DNA of 64,000 bases, taken from positions 186,001-250,000 of the forward strand of contig JYFJ02000077.1 of NCBI GenBank assembly GCA_000934665.2. The letters run 5' to 3'. Positions within the stretch are counted from its first letter, which is position 1. The number at the start of each line of letters is the position of its first letter. This stretch comes from Catajapyx aquilonaris (taxonomy: Eukaryota). This document shows, piece by piece, positions 1 to 48,220 of the stretch. Under the pieces are notes generated by a model. The model had not been told where the DNA came from and did no database searches. It saw only the letters and a program-made list of their open reading frames with translations. The translations under genes were made by a program, and so were the position numbers.

Positions 1-397
1 ACAAAAGTCGGGAGACAACCGCCGCGTTGGAGACGAAGCAGTTCCGCGATGTTTTGCCTGACCCACCCTACAGTCCAGACCTAGCCCCCTGTGACTTCTG
101 GCTATTCCTGAAGATGAAGGAACATCTGAAGGGCAAGAGTTTTGCGTCCGACGAAGAGGTCGCCAATGCAGTGCTTTGTTGGTGTCGTAAACAGCCAGCC
201 TCGTTCTTCTCTGACGGCATGCAAAAACTAGTGCGTCGAAGGCGGAAGTGCATCGCCGTCGGTGGAGATGTCGAAAAATGAATTGCTCCTCGGAAAGTGG
301 GCATTTCAAACTTTTATTTTGAATGTGACATCTTTCATGGTCATCCATTAATAAATAAGTTACAGACCAGGGGGCAAAATTTATTGAACAACCCTCG
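1..397 (+). mobile_element. 3' part of a mariner (Tc1/mariner) transposon, truncated by the window edge
   Basis: Transposase C-terminus followed by a mariner-type right TIR (...AAATTTATTGAACAACCCTCG, ending 397) and TA at 398-399. Confidence 0.9.
27..281 (+). pseudogene. Mariner transposase C-terminal fragment
   Basis: ORF contains PPYSPDLAPCDFWLF (the mariner YSPDLAPxD motif with the third catalytic Asp) and a typical tail (LKGKSF..DEEV...FFSDGMQKLV.R..KCI...GD.EK). Confidence 0.9.
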
Positions 398-408
398 TAT
401 GTATAGTA

Positions 409-1299
409 CAGAACCTTTTATTACGAATGTTACGACTCTATATGGACAAAAAGGTTATTCTGTTTCCAACCCCTGGGTTACCAGCATGTTTTTATGGATC
501 CTGAGGAAGGCTGGAAAAAGGCAATTAAAATCAAGAAAAAAAGAGGAAAAAAACAAGGGGAAGTAAGAAAATTTAAGGGGGGAAATTCATCTCAAATCTA
601 CTTAAAGGGACACTCCACTCAAAATGCAAGTTGGACTCTAAAAATCGGGCAAGAAATCCTGATTCCGAGTGTATAAGCAGTTTTTCTGAGAGACGAACGG
701 TAAGGCCAGGGCGAGCCGTCAAAGTTAGGCAATTCGAATCTGCCGCAAAACAGCAGCGCCTCTCCCGGGACTGGGCAGACATTGGCATATTCCTGCGCCA
801 TCTTGATCCACGCCATGGTCCGCGCCATCTTTGGTCCGTCCCACAGGTTTATCCCGCCACCTCTTGACCCGACCCGACTTTCAGTATTTAAACACTTTCG
901 CCTAGCGCCCAGTGGCGGCGCTCACGGCGGTGGCGGACTGGGCTGGCGGGGCAGCTCATTAGCAGACGACGCAAATTATGAGTCTTTAACGCCTCGTCCT
1001 GGCTTTTCTGTTCCGCGTAGAAAAAAACCGATTGCACCTTCGGAATCAGGATTTTTTGCCCGATTTTTAGAGCCCAACTTGCATTTTGAGTGGAGTGTCC
1101 CTTTAAGCATTGTACCAGGTTGAACATTTTGGTAATGAAAATTTTCGGAAAAAGTCGGGATGGGGTCATACGGGTTCCCCAGAGGTCGAGGACAAGATGT
1201 CCATAAGGTTGCGATGAAATCCGTTTGGGAATAATGTTGGATAGTCAGGATAAACATGTCGTCCATAGAGTCGTACATCATTCTTTATGAACGGGACTG
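409..1299. mobile_element. Old TA-flanked non-autonomous Tc1/pogo-type element hosting a nested MITE
   Basis: Left end TA|CAGAACCTTTTATTACGAATGTTACGACTCTATATGGAC resembles the reverse complement of the right end TA|CAGTCCCGTTCATAAAGAATGATGTACGACTCTATGGAC. TA flanks at 407-408 and 1300-1301. Confidence 0.6.
606..1102. mobile_element. Kolobok-like MITE (TTAA TSD, AG...CT termini)
   Basis: TTAA at 602-605 and 1103-1106. About 60 bp of near-perfect TIR (AGGGACACTCCACTCAAAATGCAAGTTGG...), with degenerate inverted similarity further inward. Purine termini fit Kolobok rather than piggyBac (CC). Confidence 0.8.
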
Positions 1300-1743
1300 T
1301 ACATATGTGTCTAACCCATAAGTCTTGAGCAGTTACCATGACCACATTAATATGTTATTGCAGGTTTGTCATTCTACAGAAATTAAGTTCAGGTACAAAC
1401 CTCAGGCACATTAATCAATGCTTGAAAAAAATTAATTGTGACCTGTTACTTATACAGTGAAACCTGTCTATAATGGACCCTTGATGCAGGGGAACTCGGG
1501 TAACAGAATTTGGTTTTGGCCTGGTGGAGGATGTTCAATACATTTTTGTCATATAAAGGGCAACCTGCATGTTTCATAAAATATTTGCTGTATGGAATGC
1601 TATAGGCTGCATTCAGTACTCTTTCAACTGCCCTTTTAAGACTTTTTGAAATTAGATATTGCCCAAATTAGTCCACTCTGCAAGACTAATTTCTGGTAAA
1701 GTGAATCAGGAGCATAATTATATTGATGGACTTTCTTCTGCAG

Positions 1744-2064
1744 GTGTGCACTTGGCAACCCTTCCCCCACCACCTCCGCCACAGCACCGTGTGTCACCTC
1801 ACCACTCACCAATGGATGAGGAGAAGAAGCGTGGAATGGAGTCGGAACTCATGCAAAGACTCACAACTGCAGCAGCTACTGCTGCATATGAGTCTGATGG
1901 GGCTGCCTTCCATGGTGGGGATGGAGGAGACAGGAAGGGGGGCAGTGGTGGTTCAGGAGGGGGCAGTGGTGGAGGAGGAGGTGGAAGTGGGAGTGCAGCG
2001 AGTGGTGCAGAAGGAGAAGCATCTGGTGGAAGGAATGAGGAAGGGGAAGGTGCAATGCCTGAAG
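1744..2064 (+). CDS. chinmo: Internal coding exon of chinmo orthologue (Pro/Gly-rich linker)
   Basis: Acceptor ttcttctgcag|, donor GAAG|gtagtt; phase 1 at both ends; open frame VHLATLPPPPPPQH...GGSGGG...MPE. Confidence 0.7.
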
Positions 2065-2128
2065 GTAGTTGTGGCTTAGTTGAGGCATATGTGTCAGGGA
2101 ACTTATCTCGGTGGTGTAATTATTCCAG

Positions 2129-2323
2129 ATTTGAGAATCAAAATGGAGCCTAGGGATGGTAATGCCAAGTCTGGTCAGCAGCAGCAGCATCGTTATTCGG
2201 ATGAACGTTCTAATAAGCACCCTGCTACACCCCATGTCATAGAAACTCAGGGGTGGGCAGTGGCCTCTTTTGCTCAACGAGTACCTGAAGGGACTGAGGG
2301 AGCAACAGTACAAAGTGCTGAAG
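2129..2323 (+). CDS. chinmo: Internal coding exon of chinmo orthologue
   Basis: 64-nt GT-AG intron at 2065-2128; acceptor tattccag|, donor GAAG|gttagt; phase 1/1. Encodes DLRIKMEP...TVQSAE, giving SAEG|KKLKC, similar to the ...TADGKKLKC I recall for Drosophila Chinmo. Confidence 0.75.
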
Positions 2324-2774
2324 GTTAGTGGTAACAAATTTTTAAAACTAGTACAGTAACTTGGGATGCCAGCAAGCCTGGTTTTTCTTATTCAACCTTT
2401 ACCTCTTGCTGTATGGAAATTATGTACCTAGACATATGAAGTTACAACCTTGGTAATATAAATGTGATATTGCACAACTTATAGCATCAAACTGATAATT
2501 TTGTGAAATCCTGAAATGTATATGGCTGCTGCATTACTAAATGCATATGCTATGGGCACAGTGATATGGGCATTTTTGCCGTAATGAACCAAGGTTCGGA
2601 CTATTTTCAACAAACTTTCATTGCGATTTGCCATGCTTGTGGAAAACCTATGGGGATGCTGTTTTTTCTATCAAGTTTCCAGGTAGAGAGGACTGCATTT
2701 TGCCACAGCTGCAGTGGTATAGCATGTGCAATATTTTTCAGAGGTTTTGAGTGCTTCATTTTTCTCACACACAG

Positions 2775-3271
2775 GCAAAAAGCTCAAGTGCCCGTTTTGT
2801 GACCGCCTATACGGCTACGAGACGAATCTGCGTGCGCACATCCGCCAGCGTCACCAGGGCATTCGTGTGCCCTGTCCCTTCTGCACCCGCACCTTCACCC
2901 GCAACAACACTGTGCGCCGGCACATTGCCCGGGAGCACCGTGGCCTCCTCACCATCCGTGGTTTGCAGCAGCAGCCAAGGGTACCTCCTTTGCCGACCGC
3001 TGCCCCCCAGCCTCCAACATCACATTCTTCGCAGCAGACCCCACCCAGGAGTGTTGTTGTGACTAACCCACCATCCTCATACGTGTCAGTCGTGACCTCC
3101 TCTGGGGGTGTCCCTACCATTACACACTCCTCTGCCCCACCACCCTCTCAGGTCAACTCTGGTGGTGGAGGCTATCCAGGACCCACCCAGGGGCAGCCAC
3201 CACCCTCACCAGGCCAGCAACAGACCTCTCACTCAGACCTGGGGCGACCACCGTCGGGATTTGGCCAGTGA
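2775..3271 (+). CDS. chinmo: Terminal exon of BTB-zinc-finger transcription factor Chinmo (two C2H2 fingers)
   Basis: Acceptor tttttctcacacacag|, phase 1. KKLKCPFCDRLYGYETNLRAHIRQRHQGIRVPCPFCTRTFTRNNTVRRHIAREH is near-identical to the Chinmo finger pair as I recall it. TGA stop at 3269-3271. The BTB exons lie upstream of the window. Confidence 0.92.
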
Positions 3272-3922
3272 GCGGTCATAATTGAGTATAATATTTCCCT
3301 GCCCCTTTTTTTAAACAAATGAATATATGATAATGGTAAGCTCCCACCCCAAAACACTACAAACCACATCCCTTTTTTTATACACCAGAACTGTTGTTTT
3401 TGTTCGGTTACGTTTTTAGAGAGGAGGGGATGAAGTAGGGAAGTGCTAAACCACATAGGTAATAACTAATATTCTATGGCCATGAATTTGCTTTATTCAG
3501 TGAAATTAGTTAAGCGTATAAAATTATTTTTAAACCCATCGACACACCAAGTGAAATGCTTATGTGATTGAGTAGGTGATGCATTGTGTTCTCCTCTAAT
3601 ACACAGTTTACACAGATACAAAATTCTTTGGAAAGTAAGCATTGTGCCAGGGCTAGTTGTATCAGCAAAGAGTAGGGGAAATTAATATTCTGATTGTGTA
3701 TGACATCCACAATTGGATAGTTTCGTATAATTTGCCATGCTACAACCAGCCCTTGATGCTGAAATGGGTGATTCCAGTATGCTTGCTTTTGGTTCAAAAT
3801 AAATTGGCAGTTAATTTTTTTGTCACAAAGTTCAGATAGACTCTCAAGGAATTTATTAGGACCGACCATGCCCGTTAAGGTTTATTCTACCTCCATAACT
3901 TCAAGAGTGGGCGAGAGTTATA

Positions 3923-4356
3923 CAGGTGACTCCGGATGTACCAGCCTCAGCTCTAACAGATTCTTGGTTATAGCAGACTCGAAAAGCTGGCCCCACCACA
4001 CATCCATATATGGCCTGTGTATTTGACTATAACAGACCTTGGTTATAGCCATAATGTTCTACTTGGCACTGGCGTCGGTCCACAGAGCACTACTTTTAGG
4101 GTCATGTTTGGGTAAAAGGTTTTTTTGAACCAACCTACCATCCTCTCTGTGCAGCTGGGTCAGTAGAATAATTTCCAGAGCCAGCCACCTGAACAAGGCC
4201 CGAAGTAGTGCTCTATGGAGGGACGGCAGCGTCAAATCCGTGTACAGCTAAGTTCACGCACAGGGGGAGGTATTTGCGCGACCTAAGTAATAGGCCGCAG
4301 TTATAGCTGACTGATTTCTGTGGTTCATTGAAGACTGTTACATCCAGAGTCTACTG
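3923..4356. mobile_element. pogo/Tigger-like MITE
   Basis: TA|CAGGTGACTCCGGATGTACCAG on the left versus reverse-complement right end TA|CAGTAGACTCTGGATGTAACAG; repeated subterminal GTTATAGC motifs; TA flanks at 3921-3922 and 4357-4358. Confidence 0.7.
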
Positions 4357-5095
4357 TATATACCATTGGACAGTACATTACAATAGAGACTGTCCAAGGG
4401 TATGGTATGTAGGACACCTGTCCACATTTCAAGATAAAACAACAGGGGTGAACATTCAAGCAATTTCCACCATTGTGGATCAGATCTGACTTCTTCTGCC
4501 CAGTATAAACCAAATTAGAAATAAGTTTGAAAATTATAAATAACATAATCACCTATTTAGGCATTAGCAGCATATTTGTTTTGTGCTGGTAGAAGCCAAT
4601 CTTCCAAATTGGAACTTGTCATTACTTTTTATTTTATCACATTCTACTTTGCATTTGTCAGGAACATATAAACTGTAAGGTCTTCAGTGCAACTTCATTT
4701 GCTTTGAAATATTTTGCAATGTAAAATAAAGAATCATCATGCTGATCGATAAGAAACAGAAGTTACATAGGGTGTGATGAAGTATAGGAGGATCCTTTTT
4801 CATAAAAATGGCATGAATGCATTGTCAAAACCAAGTGACAAGGTTTTATTATTCTGAGCAATATTGAGGTGCAGGATTTTCACATGTGCTAGTCACTGAT
4901 CACTCAACTTGCATGATGTCATGAAACAAGAAAGATTGGCAATGATGGAGAATGCAACAAGCATCTGAGATATGTCCAGTGGTTTGCTATGTTGCAAATA
5001 TTTACCACATGATGGCCTGACAGGTTCTGTACAGCATGCTCACCTGCAAGGGCAGTTCTCAGGTTGTTCTTAGGGCTCCTTTCTCACAGAATTTA

Positions 5096-5827
5096 CGAGG
5101 GCGAATCAGAAAGCAATTGAAAACTTTTTAAATTCAGAAGTTTTACTAGAGAAACTGAAACTGAGATATACATATGAAAGGGCAAGTCTTTCTCTAATTT
5201 TAGACATAGTCACCATACAATTTGGTGCATTTTTCTCAGCAGGACACTAGCTTTTCCATACCCCTGCAGAAAAAAGCGTCAGACTGGGTGGGAAGGCAGT
5301 GGGGGATGACCTCTTTCACTTCCTGGATGTTGCTGAAGTTCTTACCTGCCATGTGCTTCTTCATTGGTCCAAAGAGATGGCAGACCTTGGTTAAAACCAT
5401 CTCTTTGGACCAAAAAAGAAGCACCTGGCAGGTCAGAACTTCAGCATGGGTGGTAAGCCAGTGTGGGATGGCCTCTTTCACTTCCTCAATGTCGCTGAGT
5501 TCTTGAGATGCTAGTTCTTTTTTGGTCCAAAGAGGTGGTTTTACCCATGGTCTACCATCTCTTTGGACCAATGACGAAGCACCTAGCAGGTAAGAACGTC
5601 AGCAACATTGAGGAAGTGAAAGAGGCCATCCACCACTGGCTTCCCACCCAGTCTGATGTGTTTTTCTGCAGGGGTATGGAAGAGCAAGGGTCCTGCTGGG
5701 ACAAATCCACCAAAGTGTATGGTGACTATGACTAAAATTAGAGAAAGACTTGCCCTTTCGTATGTATATCTCATTTCAGTTTCTCTAGAATTAAAAAAGT
5801 TTTCAATTACTTTCTGATTCACCCTTG
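5096..5827. mobile_element. Palindromic (foldback) mariner-derived element built from transposase 3' ends
   Basis: TA|CGAGGGCGAATCAGAAAG...CTTTCTGATTCACCCTTG|TA. Inverted arms of ~280 bp both encode a mariner C-terminus (HLFGPM.KH.AGKN.SNI.EVKE.I..WLPTQSD.FFCRGME) on opposite strands. Confidence 0.9.
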
Positions 5828-6504
5828 TATGATTGATTGATTGGACTTTTATTTGTGCAAGAGCAGCATTAGCTATACTGAGCCAACATTACTCGCACCT
5901 GGTGAGGCTTGTGATTGAACTTGTTTCATCAAAATAATGTAAAACACTGCAAATAAGTAAAACACTCTTATACTTAATAACTTGCGCCCTGGGAATCATA
6001 ATACGTATCTTCTGCAGTTGCACATGTATTGCCCTTTAAATTGTTCTGCTGTTCCATTATTTTCATTGGACATGCTCGGTGACTAGTGCATGTGGAATTC
6101 CCAATTATTGCACTGTGTATAGGAAAGACAATGTGATTAGATTGTAATTGTTCTGACAATGAATTAATTTTTTTGCATGCATGTTTGGCCAATAATTCTA
6201 CTACTTGAGACGAAGCCAATTTTGTGGTTATCTGTAATATGTGATTTTGCACTCTCCCCTTCCAGTTGATGATCATGATAATTGAAGGCAGACTGGAGAA
6301 ATTTTAACTTCTGGGTTAAAGAAAGGGCAGAGTAGAATTTATTTATAGAGTCGGATGAGTATCTCATAGGCAGGTGTACTAGCACCTCATTTATTCGGGC
6401 AGTTTGCAGCATGTAGGGCCAGGTGGCCAGTCTTGGGAGGTGATTGCTGACCTAAAAGGTCCAACCCAAGAGGTAAGCCACACTGCTACTACTTTTAAGC
6501 TGTC

Positions 6505-6526
6505 ACATTACATACCTACTACCTCA
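6505..6526 (+). promoter_or_regulatory. Near-perfect let-7 complementary site
   Basis: ACATTACATACCTACTACCTCA versus let-7 reverse complement ACTATACAACCTACTACCTCA: miRNA nt 1-13 pair perfectly, one bulged T, then nt 14-17 and 20-21 pair. Confidence 0.85.
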
Positions 6527-7357
6527 AGTTTTATGTTTTTGGATGCATTTTTTTTATCTCCTCAAATATTATCAGGTTTATAGCCATGAAGTATTCCCCT
6601 CCTCTCACCTTGTAAAAGAACATTCAGTTAAAGGAAAACCGCCCGCTCAGGTACTTTAGTTTCTAGATTAGATGTATTTCACCCCAGCCCCCGCCAACTA
6701 ATTTTATATAGCAATGGAAAAAGTACAAACTTAACCTACACTGCAAAGCTGTTTGGTTTTTTAATCCAGCAATGCTCATCATATAGTTTTTACTGATGCA
6801 TTATTTGTTTTTATCTCAAGTTCAAATACATCTCAATTCAGGGCTCTGTACAGGTACAACAGTCATGATTCTCTGATTGTTGGATTCATTGTCCTTGTCT
6901 GACTCTATGTTTTTACTGTCTCTGCAAGCAGATATTCCGGGTAACAAAATATTCAATTCCTCTGTTGTCTTAAACCTTCATGCAGCTTGAGTTGGTGTTG
7001 TTTTCTTAGTGTTCGTGGTTTTTTTTTTTGCTGTTGAATTATTTTTTTCTGGTTGCAAGTGGACAATTTTATTGGTCATGGGCCCCTAGTTGTGTCATGG
7101 TGGCTGTGCTGTGGATACGTAAAAATAATTGTGGGCAGTTTTTTTTATAGTAAATTGATATGGGAGAGTTAGCCACCATTAAAATTGTCCATAGTTGGGA
7201 AGTATGATACATGACAACAATGTTGTGTGTTCTTGTGTTTGACTCTCAAGTGTGTTCTTCTGTTGCTCATAAGTAAGATTTCATGTCATGGTTTTAACAT
7301 GTATATGGGCATGTTGACTAACAGTTTAATTAGCATAATCAAGTTGCAATTATTGCA

Positions 7358-7364
7358 TACCTCA
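7358..7364 (+). promoter_or_regulatory. let-7 7mer-A1 seed site
   Basis: TACCTCA, about 30 nt upstream of a miR-125 seed match. Confidence 0.5.
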
Positions 7365-7376
7365 GGCTTTTTTAAA

Positions 7377-7400
7377 GTAAGTTGGGATTTGCTTCAGGGA
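7377..7400 (+). promoter_or_regulatory. miR-125 site with 3' supplementary pairing
   Basis: GTAAGTTGGG-ATTTGC-TTCAGGGA versus miR-125 reverse complement TCACAAGTTAGGGTCTCAGGGA: seed match TCAGGGA plus pairing to nt 11-20 with G:U wobbles. Confidence 0.6.
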
Positions 7401-8462
7401 CGGTACAATCAATCGTTGCAAAGGGTTTCTTTTTAGGTTTATTTTTGGTGCTACAAAAGATGCTTCAGAAGATGCATACAAATTTGTTTTTAGGGCCATT
7501 GTTGGATGTGCATGACTCAGTGCAGTCATGAACCACTATCGCAATAGTTAAACAGTTGAAACGCATACCGGTATTTACCTCGTAGGATAGCCACTCAAGT
7601 TTTACACAATCAATCAGGTGCTGGTAACAATCATAAACATGGTTACCTTTTCAAGACGGGTTTGTGAGCAGTTTATTTGTACCTTGTGTCATCTGTGCAA
7701 TTGTTGCAAATCTAGGATCTGAATGGGTTTGTGATGTGGTGCTGTTCAACAATGACAGCATAGAATTTGAGTCATTGAGATCAAGAAAGGGATAGGTGAC
7801 GGTATGGTCAGTATATGACAAGTTCCCCTATGATTCCACTGCAAACAAGTTGCTCTTGAGTAAATGCAAGAAATATGTCATTTGGTACTCTTATGAAATG
7901 GCGCCAATTGAGGCTGCCATAATGGCTTTTGCTTAAGAATTCAGGGCCTGTGGAGTCATTGATGGACTAGTGCATGAACATACCAGCAAAAGTAACGTAA
8001 TTTTATTAACAGACTTTTATGATATGGGAATTGTTTGTAATATTTTTAAATGTGGAAAATTAAATTCATCCCTGAAATTGAACGAAGCTTAATTTTTCTG
8101 GTATGAGTAGGCATCACTGACACAACAGATCTGGATTTGTAACACATTGTAATGTCTTAGATCTGAATTTATGATTAGTTTAAGTTTGTAATTAAGTGAT
8201 ATGTGGTGCGGTCAAATTGCAATATATATTTTTAATCGCCTCCTTGCCCCAAGTCCATAAGGTATGAAATCTTACTTATCATACACCTTGTTTTGCTGTG
8301 TCTGCCGAAGCAGACTACTTTGTACAATTTTGTTCGAGTCACGTTGGGCATTGTCAATCAGCATGTGGGGAGAAAAGAAGAAAAAAAAATAGACTTTCTT
8401 GTTTTACCCCGGCTTAAAAAGAAAAAAATCACAGCACACTGGCTAGTCATGACCAACAGGTA

Positions 8463-8482
8463 AACTGTTACAGATTACCTCA
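8463..8482 (+). promoter_or_regulatory. let-7 7mer-A1 site with 3' pairing
   Basis: AACTGTTACAGATTACCTCA: TACCTCA at 8476-8482, preceded by AACTGTTACA resembling the complement of the let-7 3' end (ACTATACA). Confidence 0.55.
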
Positions 8483-8905
8483 CACAGACCTCAGGAAAAT
8501 AGAGTTACATGGTACAATATCAGTTTTAAAAAATGAAAAAAAAATAGAGAAAGATTAACCCGTACCATTTTTATGATTGTAGTGTTTAAGTTTCTATCTT
8601 TATTCTTATATGTACATAATATATTATAAACACAGTATATTTGCTTTGTAATAGTAGTTTAGCAAGAGTAGATTTTAGAGCTTGTGACTGCGTCAAGGAA
8701 AGGGACAGTTGTCCAGTTTTATTTGCCTGTTTTTTTTTGTAAGTAGGGTTATGTGTGCCTAACATGGAGAGCACAGGTGGAAATGTAACGGAGGTGACTT
8801 TCTTTACCATGATGTTACATTGAGTGTGGCACAAGTCGTGAGCCCCAGGCGCCTCCTCCCAGTGTAATGTGTGCTTTTCATGGATGTTTTAGAGATGGGA
8901 TGGCA

Positions 8906-8913
8906 TACGGGTT
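8906..8913 (+). promoter_or_regulatory. miR-100 seed match
   Basis: TACGGGTT is the exact complement of miR-100 nt 1-8 (AACCCGUA). It is a single site. Confidence 0.35.
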
Positions 8914-9961
8914 GCGCAGTGGTACCTAATAGCAAAAAAACCCCACATAAATGCAGTAGTCAAAAAAAATTGTCAGGTTTTTCCAATACTTCCAGGATAG
9001 TAACAAATTATGGTACAAGTGCCAATACCAATTTTTGGCTTGACAAGTATCACTGCCGACCGCTTTTTCTAAGAAAAATAAAAGAGACAAATAGATAATA
9101 AGTCACCACATACAAATATTTAAGGTACCTCTAACATGGCACACTCAATGTTGGCGGAAGTATTTTTGTCTTGTGCTCTTCAAACCTCATTCAGCTGTAC
9201 CTCTTACCTGTTGCATTGTTTGTGGTACAACTTCCCACAAATGAGCCGGTAAATGCAACTAACAATAGGTTGTGTTCCCAGTTACACAACATTATGATGC
9301 CAGGATTTTTTTTACTCCCACTCTCAACAGACAAACTGTAACCCGAAGTACAAAGGCTGTCAGTTTCAAGTGCAAGTTTGAAGCAAAATATAAATAAATA
9401 AGTAAAGAAATTCAGAAAATAAATAAAAAGTAAAAAATAAAACAAAAAGTGTTGGAAGGAAGGGTGCGAATTTTTTCCCTTGGAAAGACGATAGTGTAGA
9501 TTCTTACTTGTGACATGTTTGATTTGATTATTTTTTGAGACACTGTATCAAAGTTGTTGATTGGTGGAAAGGTTCACATTTAGTGATCACGGGAGTGCAC
9601 ATGACATTCACATGAAATGTGGCAGGATGTGTAGGCAGTTGCACTCAATTTGTGGATTATAAAAAAAAAAAGAGTACTGTATAATGCTATCTATGATGTG
9701 ATTGAGGAGAGTTTTTTGAGGATCTATTTAGAGCCAAACTGCAGTGTATTAGCAGTTGGATTATATTATACTATGGAAAGATTTTTTATTTTGAGGGGGG
9801 GTGGGGGGATGAGCAAATGAAAAGCAGAAAAGTTTGGGGGAAATTTTTTGGCCCTTAGTAATCAGGAAAGTGTTCACATATACAGGATTACCCGACCAAG
9901 ATATAAGTTGCTTTTCTCTGTGTGAGATCATTTTGAGGCAGTCTATTTATTTTCCATTAAA

Positions 9962-9968
9962 TACCTCA
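9962..9968 (+). promoter_or_regulatory. let-7 7mer-A1 seed site
   Basis: TACCTCA. Confidence 0.4.
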
Positions 9969-10883
9969 TAGGATTTGTTCCAGAATTTTACAGGGAAGTT
10001 AGGCTTGAGACTAAATGACTCCCCAAAGCAGGTTTCTACAGCCGATGTTCCACCAGTTTCACTCAGGTTTAATATAGGTAACCAGGCAAAGTGATTTTTA
10101 TTTCCAGTTACAGAGAATCAACTGATGCATAATAACAGTGAGCTTAACTGGCAGCAAAGCTCAATTTTAATGCTTGAGTCAGAAAAAGTACCAATAATAA
10201 TAATCAGTTGTTTCCTCAATCTGCATACCTTTAAAAAAAAAATTATCTATCACCTTCCTCCTCTTTGTGGGTGTGTTATTATGGTCTTATTAGGTTGATA
10301 AAAGAAGCACAGCACGGTATCATCATAATTTAATTGTTGCAAAGCTGCAATAATTTACTGCAGAGCAGTGTATTACTTTCTAAGTTGGCAATCAATTGCG
10401 ATATATGCAGAGCTTTTTCAAATCGTTAATGAATTTGGCACTATATTATTATGAATTATATTTCTTTTTTTGCTAACTTTAGATTAACAAGTGTTGACAA
10501 ATGATTTTGAAGGTTGTGTTTGTTGAAAGTTTAGACTCTATTTGTTGGATTGGCTTTGAAAACATTATGTTCTGCATTATTTGTGTGTGTGTGAGAGTGT
10601 GTGCCATATTATGCATGCGTTTTAAAAATATATAAGTCAACCTTGATGGAACAAATGTGTGATTTTGTGTGGTTATGACAGAAATTTTATGTGGTATTTG
10701 TCTAATTTCCACTTTCAGCCATTAATATATTACACACTTTTATTTGAAAGGCTATGTTTTCAAGCAGAAATTAACTGACGTTGTGGATTTTTGGGTAATG
10801 AATCGGCTGTTAACAGGAATTACATTCACATTTTTAAAAACTCTTTCCAACATTTGGCACAAGTATTACAATGGATCATAACT

Positions 10884-10891
10884 CTACCTCA
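10884..10891 (+). promoter_or_regulatory. let-7 8mer seed site
   Basis: CTACCTCA. Confidence 0.55.
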
Positions 10892-12616
10892 CGATGAGTT
10901 TTGACTTTGTAAAAAGTTGTAATGTGAAAATATAGGGCAATTATGTTGGCAATTTAAAAATTGTCTACCTACTCTGCTCCCCCATAATGTAATGAAAAAA
11001 GGCATGATAAAAAAGTGTAACTTAACTACTCACACATGCATTGCAGCCACTGTGAAGTATTCATTATTGCAATGAGAAAAAATTCGTGTGGGTGAATTGT
11101 TGTTGTGTATGGTGTTTGTCTATATTCGAGGGAGTTTGCACTGATGTTCCAATATGAAAGCAGTGCCATTTTTATCTTTCTTTCATTTAAAAAAAAGCAG
11201 AAACAAAAATGGATGTACGGTGTTGTGCAGAGGTTCTTTTCACTTTGTTTTTCCAGAGCAAATCTTTCACTTCATTAGCCCGTGGCATAGGTGTTGTTGG
11301 AAAAGGAAAAAAAAAAAGAAGCAGGGTCATGCATGACGTGTGAAAATTGAGCATGAATATAATTTTTTATGTAGTGTTGCTTCAGGTGTGTGCTAATACA
11401 TTGTATTGGGAACATAAAAACCAAATATTTATAAATTGTGACTTTTTGGAAACTGAATGTGTCCCAATTTGTTTGGATTAAAAGTCAAAGAGTAGGCATA
11501 GCTTGTAGCAACAGTGACATATCTAGCAAGCACATTTGAAGACGTCCACTTACACACACTGTAAGCTCTTTCAAAATGGATAGCAAGTATTTTATTGGGT
11601 AGCTCGAGAAGAAATGCGAGATGATTAGGTAGAAATAGGCGCAAGTGCATTGAGGACAAGTAACGTTGAAGACTAATGTAAATGGCTCAATTTTATCTCA
11701 GATGTGACTGCATCATGCGTAAACCTCGTCAGTTTTTGAAATGCAACTCAGCCCAGTGGTTGCTGGTCAGTACATAGAATTGGAAGATTATGCTCTGTGC
11801 AAATTCAGTTACAATGGAACAAAAGTAAAAATCTGCGCTATTACTTGCTGCTGACTAACCATAATTAATGGAGAGACTTACCAAGAAACATTTTTGTATT
11901 TGAATCTTTGTAAGTGGTGCCGAACCACTTGTGATCACAGTTGTGCTCTTTCTTACTTAAGATGTGCTGACATGAAAATAACGTGATCTGAAACTTACTG
12001 TTTCCAGTTACGTAACTATTGACTGTTTACTTTTCAACATCACAGCAGACTGTAAACGAAATGACAGGGTATATTTTGCTCTGTACGTGTACGATATGTG
12101 CCTAGGGATACTTTCTGGGATGTCTTGACGTCCATTTGCTACGGTACAGATAGAGAACATGCTATTTACATAGTTGGCTAAGTTTTTTGCAGAAAAATGC
12201 CTTGCATTGTGCACTGATGGCCAGTTTTTATTAGAGAATTTTTCAATCTCCTTCAAACTTCATGAAATACCAAAGTCTCAAGTGCTACAGCAATTGTGCA
12301 TTAAGTGTGATGTGGAAAAAAAAAACTACACCTTTGGATATATGTCGACACATGAGTTTTTCCCTGTCTGTGCATTGTAAAACGATAACAATATTACAGC
12401 TTGAGGTACGAGTAGATGAAGTGAAAAAAATAGCATTATAAGTGCATATATTTTATCACTGCATGTGGTACCAAGTAGATAAACCAGGTGTCGTCACAAA
12501 TGTGTGGCATTTTGAGCAGTTACATACCATTTATGACTGTAATTTTTTTTTGTGGTTGTTGTTCATGTACAGTTGATTGTTATCCCTCTGGATATATAAA
12601 AAAAAACATATTTTAA

Positions 12617-12622
12617 AATAAA
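12617..12622 (+). terminator. Candidate distal polyadenylation signal of chinmo
   Basis: AATAAA followed by TTTTGTTGTCTTCTG; sequence composition changes within the next ~0.7 kb. Confidence 0.45.
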
Positions 12623-13797
12623 CCAGTGACATTTTGTTGTCTTCTGCATCTTGTTGCCTTTTAATGGTAACCTGACTATTCTGCTTACCCCCAATCCACA
12701 GGAGGAGATTATTGGATAGGTATGGATTACGTGCTTGGGGAAACTACATCATGCGCTTCCCAAGGGAGGAAAGTCAGTCAACGTCACGTTGCTATTGGGC
12801 CTCCAGGTCATCTTTCCTGAGCACATGCATTCTACTCTGTCAACTACACTAGTGGGCTGTGTCGTAGTCCTCGGTTTCCTCCCTAATGTTTTTTAGTGCT
12901 TGTACTTAATACTGTGATGGGAGTTGCTGCATGTCTTCCTGTGACTGAAGTGATTTCCATCCCAATTGAGTGGATCTCAAGAAAGACTGGCATTCAAAAG
13001 AGTGGTGTGAAAAATGGGATTAGTGGCCGTGATAGAGGTCGTGTTATAGCTAAGGAGCAAAATTGTATGTATGGTGTTTACTGCATGCACAGTGCGGTTG
13101 TGAAATGAAGTGCCATGAGTTAGTTTGGCATTTGCATCATTTAATATATTTACTGTTTACACACGGGATGTTCATATAGACAGTGAGGTTGGATGTACAT
13201 TATACTGTAGTTTGTTATCAATTAAACTATGACATATTTTAAATGTTATCTTGGCAATAGTATGGGCAAGTCAAGGTGAAGGATGATATTTTGTACTGTA
13301 CAAATGGGCCAAAGTGCACAAATCCAACGACCTATACATAATGTATAATGCGGGGAATTTCAATAACATTTTTAAAAATAACGCCGATGAATCTTGTTGA
13401 AATACTGGGATGAAAAAGGGTCTGATACCTTCAAAAGTTTCCTTATTTTCACAATTTACTTAAAAATGTCGATGGTCTTTGATCGTGTCAGGTAAGTTTT
13501 GCTTTATTCCTCTCATACCAGGTCCCTTCTCCCTAGGACTATAGGCCAAGATGTCAGATTTTTTTAAAAAACCTTTGGAGGCACTGTCACTTTATTACAT
13601 TGTGGTGGGTGGAGGGGGGAGGGAGAGAGAAATCCCACTAGTCGTTGGACCATAGGACAATTTTTTATTGTCCTTTCAAATGCAACGAGAGGAAATCTAC
13701 TTGCTCTTTCCACCGGATCGATTAAAAATGGGTTTCTTTTAAGATTCAAAGCGGCTGTCTCATCGAAATAGGGAATACGTATATTATTATTGAGTGT

Positions 13798-14122
13798 CAG
13801 GGAAGGCGTGGTGGCCGAGATGGTAACGTCTCGGCTTGCTGGGCGGAATGTCCGGGGTTCGATCCCCGCCCGGGAGTTCCCTTCCGCCTGCGTCAGTGGG
13901 TCTTGGCAACCTAGCCTTCTGGGGGACTGCACATGATGCATTTCCGACAATGCACTTTCACCTGTGTCCTCTCCCCAAAAATCCCTATCATTACTCAATT
14001 TCCTTCCCTGCACGGAGAATGAAGAAAAAAGTATAAATAATACTAGAAAATTGATGGTGGTATGCCACCCCCCTATAACGACTTACAGTTGTATCACGGG
14101 GTAAAATTTTTTAAAAAATAAA
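13798..14122 (+). mobile_element. tRNA-derived SINE, copy 1
   Basis: Pol III A box TGGCCGAGATGG and B box GGTTCGATCCC; A-rich tail; 15-bp TSD ATTATTAT(T/A)GAGTGT at 13783-13797 and 14123-14137; homologous to 47899-48220. Confidence 0.88.
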
Positions 14123-25265: not shown

Positions 25266-25468
25266 ATAGCACTGTGTAATTGCTTTAAAATACAATTATT
25301 ACAAATATAAACATACTTGGCCGTTGGATAAACAGACTTGGCCGTATTTCAGATCTCACCACTTTTGACGGCCAAGCAGTCAGGAGAACTTGGCCTTTTT
25401 TTTACAGAAAGGTTTTTGGTGGGATAGCACTGTGTAATTGCTTTAAAATACCATTACAAATATAAACA
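25266..25468. repeat. ~45-bp direct repeat pair flanking a 110-bp spacer
   Basis: ATAGCACTGTGTAATTGCTTTAAAATAC...ATTACAAATATAAACA at 25266-25313 and 25424-25468. Confidence 0.85.
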
Positions 25469-25544
25469 CACTGTAGTATTCTGCTGGCGCAAAAATGTCA
25501 GAAATGGTTAGAAAAGGTAAAATAACTCAATTTTTTTCCTCCAG

Positions 25545-44600: not shown

Positions 44601-47600
44601 GCTAGTTATGGATGAATATTACGTCCGAGCTACGTCGTCCAGCCAACCGATGCTGCTGGAGAGGCCTTACCTTTTCGCTGTGGGGGAATCAGGTGAGGGA
44701 GGGTATTTATGGGTTGCCTGGGTAACCGTTGATAGAATGGAGAGAGTGTAGGGGGTGGGGGGAGAGCCTTTCTGTCCCCGTCGGTGTGACATTCAGGATT
44801 CATACGCGGCTGTCGAAACATCTGCACCGCTAATTTAAACTTGAGATGTGCCTTCTGATTAGGGTCGAGTCGGATAAAGGGCGTCAAAAAAAATGTATGA
44901 CGGTTGTAGGACGTCACGTTTTCCAGGTGGAGGCGATGTGTAATCGGAGACGTGTTTTATGTCATTTGGTGTTCATTAGTGCTGTATGTGAAGTCCTCTT
45001 TTTTAACAATATTAGAGTGACGGCGCCTCATTATGGGGGCTAAATTTACTGAGGTTTGAATGTGGGAGTGGAGAGGCTGCGTGTGACAAATTAATTGTTG
45101 GTATGGAGTTATATGTCGCTCCCCCCACTGATTACAGGGTGATCCAAACACTGCAGCATGTGCTAGTCATTTTATTGATTAATTTTAAATAATTCTGATA
45201 TTTAATTACATAATGTTGTAATCTTTTGTACAAACAATAATGAGTTGTGTGGTTTTATTTGCAAACTAAGCTGACCCTGATGGTACTGGCTTCCGAGCCA
45301 TCCTGTGCGCATGTATGGCCTCGTTGTTGTTGTTGTGCAGCTGGAACTTGCGGTGTCCTGGACTCCCATTAACATCTGCATTATAGGCAGGAAATTGGTT
45401 TGCTTTACCGATGGATTGCGAGTTATTAATATTTGATAACCTAGTTGGACCAGTCGGCAAAAGGTTATGAGAGAGTCAGCATGACTTGCACCGATACATG
45501 GATATAAATACTTGAAAGACAATTACACAGTGCCACTATGGCAGTAACCCGAATATTAATTATTATTTCATTCTGTTTGCATTTCGGTTGCAATTATGCA
45601 ACAAAACGCTCGGATGTGATATATACAATAACATAATAATTATGTTACACATTTTGCTCTGGCAATACAATATATGCAACAACAAAATAATTAAATGTTC
45701 AATACTTTAAATTGCGATGTCACACTGCCGATGTAATGTAGGAATTTTAAAATCCACCATTGAAAAGAGAGATCTATAATATACCGTACTGCAAATGAAC
45801 TCTTCTTGTGATCTTCCATGAATTGACCTTTTTTTCGACTGACAAAAGACTTGAGCGAATATTTCAAGAACTCTCTGTAATCAAATCCGACGATTCATTT
45901 AGCACGCATAGAAAGCGAAGGAAGTCTAAAAAGGAACCCGGTGTATCTGAAGCAGAAAAAGAAACTGGAAGAGTGTGTTTACTTGCTGCACAGCTTTATG
46001 TCGCAGTTAACTTTTTTTTTGTATTCGTCACGAGTCGAAGGTGTAGAGTAGAATAGCAAGTAGCGGATTGCAATGGATTTACCCAGCAGTGCTGCGAGAA
46101 ATGGCGCCATCTTCCCTTTTTCTGGAAGACGAATGGCAATATCTTAACCAAGCCTGAGGTCAGAATTCCTAACGAACCATTGGCATTTGGGAGGAGTCGC
46201 AAAAGGTCCGGAATTGGTAACCAACCCTCTTTCTCTCCTTCAAATAATGAAAAAAAAAAGCTGTCGAGGAATGACATTCCAACCGACCCCATATTGGATT
46301 CTTTGAAAGTATTAGCGCACTCAAATATTCATTACTAGTAGGTCGCCCTTTGCTGTCTAGATTGCATTTTTCACATATTGTAAATACCGAATTTATTTAT
46401 AAGCAGACACTTGGTTAATTGCTCACACTGCCTTGTTACGCCAATATGCATACCTTCTATATTTTCTCCTTACCTTCCGGATTTAGAAGGTATTTTGCAC
46501 AGAGAAGGTAATTTATAAGGTAAATGGTTAAGACGGCACACAACACATTCGGTGTCCTGAAACCCGAGCAGTGACACGCCTTCTTTGGTGCTAACAACTT
46601 AATCAACCGCTCTGCATCTATAAGTAGGTTATATCCGGAGCTACAAAATGAGTTGCACTGTGATTTGATTACCTCAGGGATTGTTGGTCGGGGGAAGTGG
46701 GAAGTGGGCCCCTTTATTTCTCAGTCCTCCTTTAACTCGTTTGCAACTCATTTGATGTCCCAGAAAACTGGGGGAACTATATTACAATGTTCTTCACCTG
46801 AGGAAAAAAAAATATGGCGACCAACATTCTAGTGGTAATCAATGCATTCGAGTAGGCTAATTTAATTTGGGCCACGGTAGCACGTGTGGAAATGGCGACT
46901 ATCACAATGGGGAGTCTTGATCACATGGCATGAATTCCTGATTTGTGACCCACGGATTGAGGTGATGGCCGGTTTAATTGGGATTAAGACCAGTAATATG
47001 TCTGAGGGTAGGGAAAATTAGGCTAATTTTAGTCCTGGGAGCAAGTTGGACGAGTTGAAGAGCATATGGCGTCTGTGAATGTATAATTTTGGCGGATTTT
47101 AAGCGCATGAGAGGGGAGAGCTCTCTCAAATAATATTTCAGCCTTGTTGCAATTCAAGGACTCTTTTCCATACCAGGCTTGATGTGCTGCAATGTTTCGA
47201 GCCGCACTTACAACTCATTAAGCGGAGGATACAGGTTCAAATAAAAGGACAAAATTGCGTGCTGTGTACCTGTATGTCCTAAAAATAGAATAGGGGGTCC
47301 GGTACTAATGATCTGCACCAAAAGGTCTATTATCACGTGAGTGGTGCGGCAACCCACGTAATGCTGATGGAATTTACAATAAAGATTGTAATGATGATAA
47401 CTATAATTGAAATGTTTTAAAGGCTTACAAAATAATGTTTTCTATGCAGAGTTGAGTCTAATAATGGAATAGAGCAAGCCTGAGGGTGTTAGGATGATTT
47501 TTTAACTCCTCTGAATAATTGAGAGTTCAGGAATATTCCGAGAGAAAATCGAACCTCCCTACAGTGCCGTCGTCGGCTTCCGGCTTGTGTTATTATATTT

Positions 47601-47898: not shown

Positions 47899-48220
47899 TT
47901 TTTTTGTACCCCGGGATTACCGGTTCTATAGGGGGTGGCACACCACCATCAGCTTTCTGGTGTAATTTTTCTTCGCTCTCCGGTGCAAGGAATCAAGGAC
48001 ATACTAGGGTAAAGATAGGAATTTTTGGTGAGGGGACACAGGTGAAGGTGCAATGTCGTTGTGTCGGGCCATGTGCAGTCCCCCAGGAGGTAAGGTTGCC
48101 AGACACCTCCAAGGTGCAGGTCAGAGACCCTCCTGACGCAGGTGAAAGGGAACTCCCTGGCAAGGATCGAACCTGGGACCTTTCACTCAGCAAGCCGAGA
48201 CGTTTCCATCTCGTCCTCAT
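47899..48220 (-). mobile_element. tRNA-derived SINE, copy 2
   Basis: Reverse complement aligns with 13798-14122 throughout (B box GGTTCGATCC, GGGGGACTGCACATG, GATGGTGGT.TGCCACCCCCTATA, A tail); 10-bp TSD ATCATAATGT at 47889-47898 and 48221-48230. Confidence 0.88.

Follow-up and report, generated by a model that had tools for sequence, protein, structure and literature searches.

The 64,000-nucleotide stretch of Catajapyx aquilonaris DNA analysed here (contig JYFJ02000077.1, positions 186,001 to 250,000, forward strand; hereafter the window, numbered from its first base) begins with the end of a gene for the zinc finger protein Chinmo, behind which nine sense-strand matches to the seed of the microRNA let-7 are spread over 7 kb. 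The region from 3272 to about 12640 is read with good confidence as the long 3' untranslated region (3'UTR) of the chinmo orthologue of a hexapod-looking arthropod, carrying these nine matches. The last coding exon of the gene occupies 2775..3271 of the + strand and encodes two C2H2 fingers followed by a Pro/Ser/Gln-rich tail that ends in the stop codon TGA at 3269-3271. The acceptor AG, read directly in the sequence at this exon, lies at 2773-2774 and is preceded by a pyrimidine tract, and Pfam zf-C2H2 is matched in two stretches of the frame 2723-3271. A search among longer proteins returned 246 relatives of the finger exon at E <= 0.001; most of the named ones, which come from many hexapod orders, are entered as 'zinc finger protein chinmo' or as 'chronologically inappropriate morphogenesis', with 73-95% identity to named chinmo relatives over the fingers; the nearest named proteins found by BLASTP are likewise hexapod. 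Alignment of the exon with 13 chinmo proteins, from Collembola, Odonata, Blattodea, Ephemeroptera, Coleoptera, Thysanoptera, Neuroptera, Hymenoptera, Diptera and Lepidoptera together with a copepod-like protein, leaves 45 columns invariant. On these matches the exon ending at 3271 belongs to a chinmo orthologue, the finger pair being near-invariant in chinmo proteins, and the identity proposed in the first-pass annotation, a reading of the letters of the window, stands. Farther upstream, the open frame 2080..2328 (+) is a candidate internal exon with approximate bounds and probably is coding sequence of the same gene; its motif DLRIKMEP resembles, by eye, the PEDLRIKxEP of the chinmo alignment consensus. 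A search for relatives of the upstream frame 1656-2153 found none.

Canonical sense-strand let-7 seed matches of seven and eight nucleotides are present downstream of the chinmo stop, the first site beginning 616 bases past it. Word counts on the + strand place the 7mer-m8 CTACCTC at 3887..3893, the 8-mer CTACCTCA at 6519..6526 and again at 10884..10891, the 7mer-A1 TACCTCA at 7358..7364, 8476..8482 and 9962..9968, and the 6-mer TACCTC at 7576..7581, 9126..9131 and 9198..9203. The nine matches thus comprise two 8-mers, one 7mer-m8, three 7mer-A1 sites and three 6-mers. The first 8-mer extends upstream to CTACTACCTCA (6516..6526), which would pair with nucleotides 1-11 of let-7. Direct counting reproduced on the + strand every TACCTC position of the first-pass annotation, its five TACCTCA heptamers in the array (7358, 8476 and 9962, with 6520 and 10885 inside the 8-mers) and its estimate of about three elsewhere, the rest of the window holding exactly three on that strand (29351, 46670 and 59060). 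One of these three lies in TACCTCAGGGA at 46670-46680, a let-7 7-mer overlapping a miR-125 7-mer, 34 kb past the putative 3'UTR; this isolated match is probably due to chance.

The let-7 array is real, strand-specific and far above chance. The chance model was a set of 2000 dinucleotide-preserving shuffles of 3272-10900. TACCTC occurs nine times in this stretch against a shuffle mean of 0.84, TACCTCA five times against 0.37 and CTACCTC three times against 0.14, and each of these counts was reached in none of the 2000 shuffles; the two copies of CTACCTCA, against a mean of 0.05, were reached in two (P = 0.001). The antisense of TACCTC is found twice against 1.45 (P = 0.42), and the reverse complements of the let-7 7-mers and 8-mer do not occur between 3272 and 10900. 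The excess that had been noticed by eye therefore holds against shuffled controls, and on the sense strand only. A prior-free ranking of all hexamers and heptamers of the same stretch against first-order expectation places TACCTC second among hexamers, behind AAAAAA (Poisson p = 3e-7), and TACCTCA third among heptamers, behind two homopolymers. The nine same-strand copies of TACCTC in the 9369 bases of the putative 3'UTR compare with seven in the remaining 51360 bases (binomial p = 2e-4). Since the flanks of the nine sites all differ, and no site lies within a repeat detected by self-comparison of the window, the sites are independent of one another.

The putative chinmo 3'UTR spans 3272..12640 (+), about 9.4 kb. 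This extent is read from the spread of the sites, from the frames between them and from a poly(A) signal consensus. None of the 17 open reading frames (ORFs) of at least 70 aa between 3.5 and 11.7 kb has a Pfam match. The candidate poly(A) signal AATAAA at 12617..12622 (+), a consensus match, is the first AATAAA past the last let-7 site, an ATTAAA lying at 11477. The 3' end may plausibly lie near 12.64 kb, because a T/GT-rich stretch follows this AATAAA and because G+C, 0.35-0.38 over 6-12 kb, rises to about 0.40-0.43 past 12 kb (about 0.41 elsewhere). Within 3272-12640 the sense strand has fewer copies of AATAAA than of the reverse complement (8 vs 20; 40 vs 48 in the rest of the window), a weak hint, given the T>A composition of the strand, that premature poly(A) signals are avoided in a long message. 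Words of the Pumilio, AU-rich element and Musashi-like type are without strand bias.

Other chinmo-type loci were collected by scanning metagenome contigs with two finger peptide patterns, which gave 74 confirmed loci chosen by coding sequence only. A blastn comparison of window positions 1-13000 with these 74 loci gave 59 matches, all within 2770-2950 and starting at 2770-2810, so that only the finger-coding part aligns and no relative with an alignable 3'UTR is among them. The let-7 sites were therefore counted behind chinmo-type genes in general. At least 300 bases past the stop were available for 66 of the 74 loci, which fall into 30 clusters sharing no stretch of at least 150 bases at 75% identity or more; each cluster was represented by the member with the longest downstream sequence, 108051 bases in total. 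In these 30 representatives TACCTC is counted 88 times where 15.0 are expected; it is present in 25 loci and ranks second of 4096 hexamers, behind ACACAC. CTACCTC (48 vs 2.9) and TACCTCA (57 vs 5.2), each in 23 of the 30 loci, are the top heptamers other than simple repeats. Full 8-mers account for 40 of the 88 TACCTC matches, far more than a bare hexamer yields by chance, and a 7- or 8-mer is present in 24 of the loci. The antisense GAGGTA stays at 10 against 13.9 expected, in seven loci. The sequence preceding the ORFs of the same loci is flat (TACCTC 8 vs 6.9 sense and 11 vs 9.1 antisense), and the ORFs themselves hold 7 against 2.7. The miR-125 hexamer TCAGGG (13 vs 12.4) is not enriched across the 30 loci, and the miR-100 hexamer ACGGGT (14 vs 8.8) was also called not enriched.

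The representatives were labelled by their best BLASTP match among named proteins. Twelve are hexapod-like, with nearest proteins from termite, ant, springtail (three), beetle, mayfly, louse, fly (two) and bug (two), and hold 37 let-7 matches against 7.1 expected, the sites of the genomic loci being scattered over 4-9 kb past the stop. The beetle-like locus L003 displays seven let-7 8-mers 27-38 bases apart between +648 and +852 past the stop, six of them inside the unit CTACCTCAGGAA, and its array grew by tandem duplication. The other 18 loci are nearest to a group of unnamed proteins (P0088/P0098/P0099) and hold 51 matches against 7.9. A search with P0099 returned copepods as its named relatives (Tigriopus, Lepeophtheirus, Eurytemora), the sole named non-copepod being a beetle 'zinc finger protein chinmo'. 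The copepod-like label agrees with a 2026 survey (PMC13449613) that reports chinmo from hexapods and from seven of the eight copepods, and from no other crustacean, myriapod or chelicerate. Many of the copepod-like contigs look like spliced messages, because they carry an uninterrupted frame of 560-830 aa. Several members of one copepod-like cluster end at a common point just past AATAAA/ATTAAA, and the sites of that cluster therefore lie in a real 3'UTR. Single let-7 seed matches are conserved in this same cluster, as judged from the alignment of 11 of its 3'UTRs (median identity 63%, 35% invariant columns), where two 8-mers persist in all 11 and, of two sites close to the 3' end, one persists in all 11 and the other in 10. 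A termite-like trio (L011, L013 and L017) also keeps all seven of its shared sites; its 3'UTRs are 97% identical, and the trio was set aside as uninformative.

Two further words stood out in the downstream regions of these loci. The 8-mer AAGACTGA, which matches a miR-14-type seed, occurs 27 times in 17 of the 18 copepod-like regions (L020, L035, L037, L039, L045, L049, L050, L055, L057, L060, L062, L063, L066, L067, L071, L072 and L073) and in none of the 12 hexapod-like ones; the 7-mer AAGACTG is found 32 times against 7.5 expected in the pooled sequence, and the window has only this 7-mer, at 4331 and 12983. CTCAGG is over-represented as well (49 vs 11.9 in the pooled sequence, to which hexapod-like loci contribute 37), with L013, L003, L008, L001 and L007 as carriers and with copies in the window at 5058, 6646, 7361, 8490 and 10062. 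Six copies come from the tandem unit of L003 and the rest of the excess is unexplained, the full miR-125 match TCAGGG being at chance.

Several observations weigh against reading the region as a let-7-controlled chinmo 3'UTR. Three of the nine window sites are bare 6-mers, which are individually weak. The BTB domain of the chinmo gene must fall upstream of the first base of the window, and the aligned part of the 74 loci ends within the coding sequence. For the partner microRNAs of the fly case, the stretch has one miR-125 7-mer (7394) and one miR-100 7-mer (8906), neither enriched. Taken singly, only 16 of the 30 loci reach significance at p < 0.05. Sites are absent from five loci; four of these offer less than 900 bases downstream, and the fifth, L073, has 3961 bases. 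The count of 11 at L003 is raised by its tandem repeat, without which locus the hexapod-like sum is 26 against 6.4.

The alternative that survives best, though an improbable one, is that the distal sites act in the RNA of a separate sense transcript downstream, a long non-coding RNA or a let-7 sponge, and that the chinmo 3'UTR ends at the AATAAA at 3798 or 4725. Sense AATAAA words are indeed present at these two positions, at 9077 and in a cluster at 9393-9436, and just one site (3887) precedes 4725. Against such a transcript, the copepod-like contigs with a full frame carry sites up to 3.3 kb past the stop, the copepod-like sites reach to about 100 bases before the shared contig end, and the hexapod-like loci have the same wide spread of sites already described. 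A chinmo 3'UTR of 8.5 kb is moreover given for Drosophila in PMC7192631.

Less probable again is that TACCTC(A) acts at the level of the DNA, for instance as the binding site of a transcription factor in a downstream enhancer, and is unrelated to let-7. The stretch adjoins a developmental regulator, and enhancers are common beside such genes. A DNA-level motif would be indifferent to strand, and the bias of 9 vs 2 in the window and 88 vs 10 in the 30 loci therefore argues against it. The flanking bases preferred, C before and A after the hexamer, are specific to let-7, as the share of 8-mers reflects, and the sites are present in contigs that look like messages. Chance, composition or a repeat-borne word has next to nothing in its favour beyond the A+T-rich stretch, whose composition is unlike that of the rest of the window, and was rejected on the empty shuffle tail, the rank of TACCTC among all hexamers, the unique flanks outside any repeat and the recurrence in 25 of 30 loci. 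Splice donors GAG|GTA of a minus-strand gene, suggested by the resemblance of the reverse complement GAGGTA to a donor start, can be dismissed almost entirely, since the base that follows GAGGTA on the minus strand at the nine sites (G, G, T, A, A, C, C, T, G) misfits the donor consensus, no minus-strand ORF has a Pfam domain, and the sites are sense to chinmo in message-like contigs.

The preferred reading thus remains a long chinmo 3'UTR with an array of let-7 target sites, and on the sequence evidence this array is very probably functional. The proposal of the first-pass annotation that the region is under selection for let-7 control gains support from the strand-specific excess, its recurrence in 25 of 30 loci, the flat upstream controls and the sites kept in 11 of 11 copepod-like 3'UTRs. 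By analogy with Drosophila, let-7 would rise late in juvenile life and let-7-loaded Argonaute would bind the nine sites of the chinmo message. The several sites per message would add up to deadenylation and translational repression, leading to a fall of Chinmo protein that would clear the way for later programmes (Broad, E93, later neuronal fates). We infer, for this species, one continuous 3'UTR, the presence and timing of let-7 and the repression itself. In general, let-7 is regarded as universal in bilaterians.

The let-7/chinmo switch known from the fly looks very old, because the site excess recurs behind chinmo-type genes of many arthropods. On balance we lean towards repression of chinmo by let-7 being an ancestral timing module of hexapods and copepods, older than insect metamorphosis, in which the partner sites have changed. 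In that event, the arrays would have persisted in genomes of springtail-, mayfly-, louse-, termite-, beetle- and fly-like type and in numerous copepod-like messages, and the partners would be miR-125 in flies and the miR-14-type 8-mer in 17 of 18 copepod-like 3'UTRs. Chinmo has recently been proposed as a keeper of the larval or nymphal state (PMC9169713, PMC10234633, PMC12758806, PMC12848571, PMC11626174), in work that covers Drosophila, Tribolium, Blattella, Oncopeltus and the fall armyworm. How Chinmo gets switched off is a central question, and let-7 does part of this in the fly. Should let-7 sites regularly accompany chinmo all the way from copepods to insects, the pair would become a candidate ancestral timer of the juvenile-to-adult transition in the lineage, and the link would be directly testable in non-model species. 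Taken by itself, the window yields a sound annotation, comprising the last part of a chinmo gene, a long putative 3'UTR and nine let-7 sites; the wider recurrence across hexapod-like and copepod-like loci is more interesting than the window array.

The remainder of the window adds little to this picture. Behind the putative 3'UTR, 12641-64000 is a long gene-poor stretch with no obvious gene, its ten ORFs of at least 130 aa not looking coding-like by eye. It contains the inverted repeat pair 13813-14077 / 47927-48216 (72%) and the pair 25266-25317 / 25424-25472. Self-comparison also revealed, ahead of the chinmo exons, two inverted copies of 124 bases (601-724 / 984-1107) that are 83% identical and may represent the ends of a small transposable element. 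Within the putative 3'UTR lies a local direct duplication of 165 bases, 5279..5604 (5279-5446 and 5441-5604, 77% alike), which holds no let-7 site and looks by eye like a transposase remnant, with no Pfam match. The open frames 3-281 (+), 5236-5598 (-) and 5499-5735 (+) resemble, also by eye, the C-terminal part of a mariner-type transposase, and none of the three has a Pfam match at the thresholds used. An Rfam scan of the whole window at gathering thresholds returned no match. The short interspersed elements (SINEs) named in the first-pass annotation could not be recovered, self-comparison yielding four repeat pairs only and ARAGORN no tRNA-like element anywhere in the window; the CpG depletion named with them is present in a mild form, at an observed/expected ratio of 0.70.

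The chinmo 3'UTR of Drosophila is reportedly a target of the let-7-Complex, a result that citing papers attribute to Wu et al. 2012. Repression of Drosophila chinmo by the let-7-Complex drops from 17-fold to 6.9-fold without the let-7 sites, according to Chawla et al. 2016 (PMC4979967), and let-7-family microRNAs are said, in PMC9169713, to reinforce the Chinmo-to-Broad switch. Our literature search, which did not cover subscription journals and supplements, found no report of let-7 sites in chinmo outside Drosophila. MicroRNA papers on Glossina and Tribolium merely cite the fly let-7/chinmo work; the studies of cockroach and of Tribolium/Blattella chinmo (PMC12758806, PMC10234633) have no occurrence of microRNA, miRNA, post-transcription or UTR, and in PMC12848571 let-7 appears in the reference list only. 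The fly case being already known, what is new here is the excess of let-7 sites behind chinmo-type genes in 30 non-redundant downstream regions.

Among known systems, the classical multi-site let-7 targets are lin-41 and hbl-1 of C. elegans and HMGA2 and LIN28 of vertebrates. The present case resembles them in that a let-7 array lies in the putative 3'UTR of a regulator that is sensitive to dosage and acts on juvenile or early fate. In contrast, the proteins are unrelated, the chinmo family being reported in PMC13449613 from hexapods and copepods only. Another reported BTB-zinc-finger factor has several let-7 sites in its 3'UTR, and its own paper calls orthology with chinmo uncertain. The closest counterpart is chinmo of Drosophila itself, which differs from the present case in several respects. 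The sites in the window are spread over 7 kb, whereas those of the fly are packed in a fragment of 1.4 kb; the same fly fragment has four canonical miR-125 sites, in contrast to a single 7-mer here and hexamers at chance level across the 30 loci; and the species is not a fly, the array being known here from sequence alone. The two cases nevertheless share the finger pair that identifies the same gene, a very long 3'UTR (8.5 kb in the fly and a putative 9.4 kb or so here) and multiple sense let-7 seed matches, six in the fly fragment and nine in the window.

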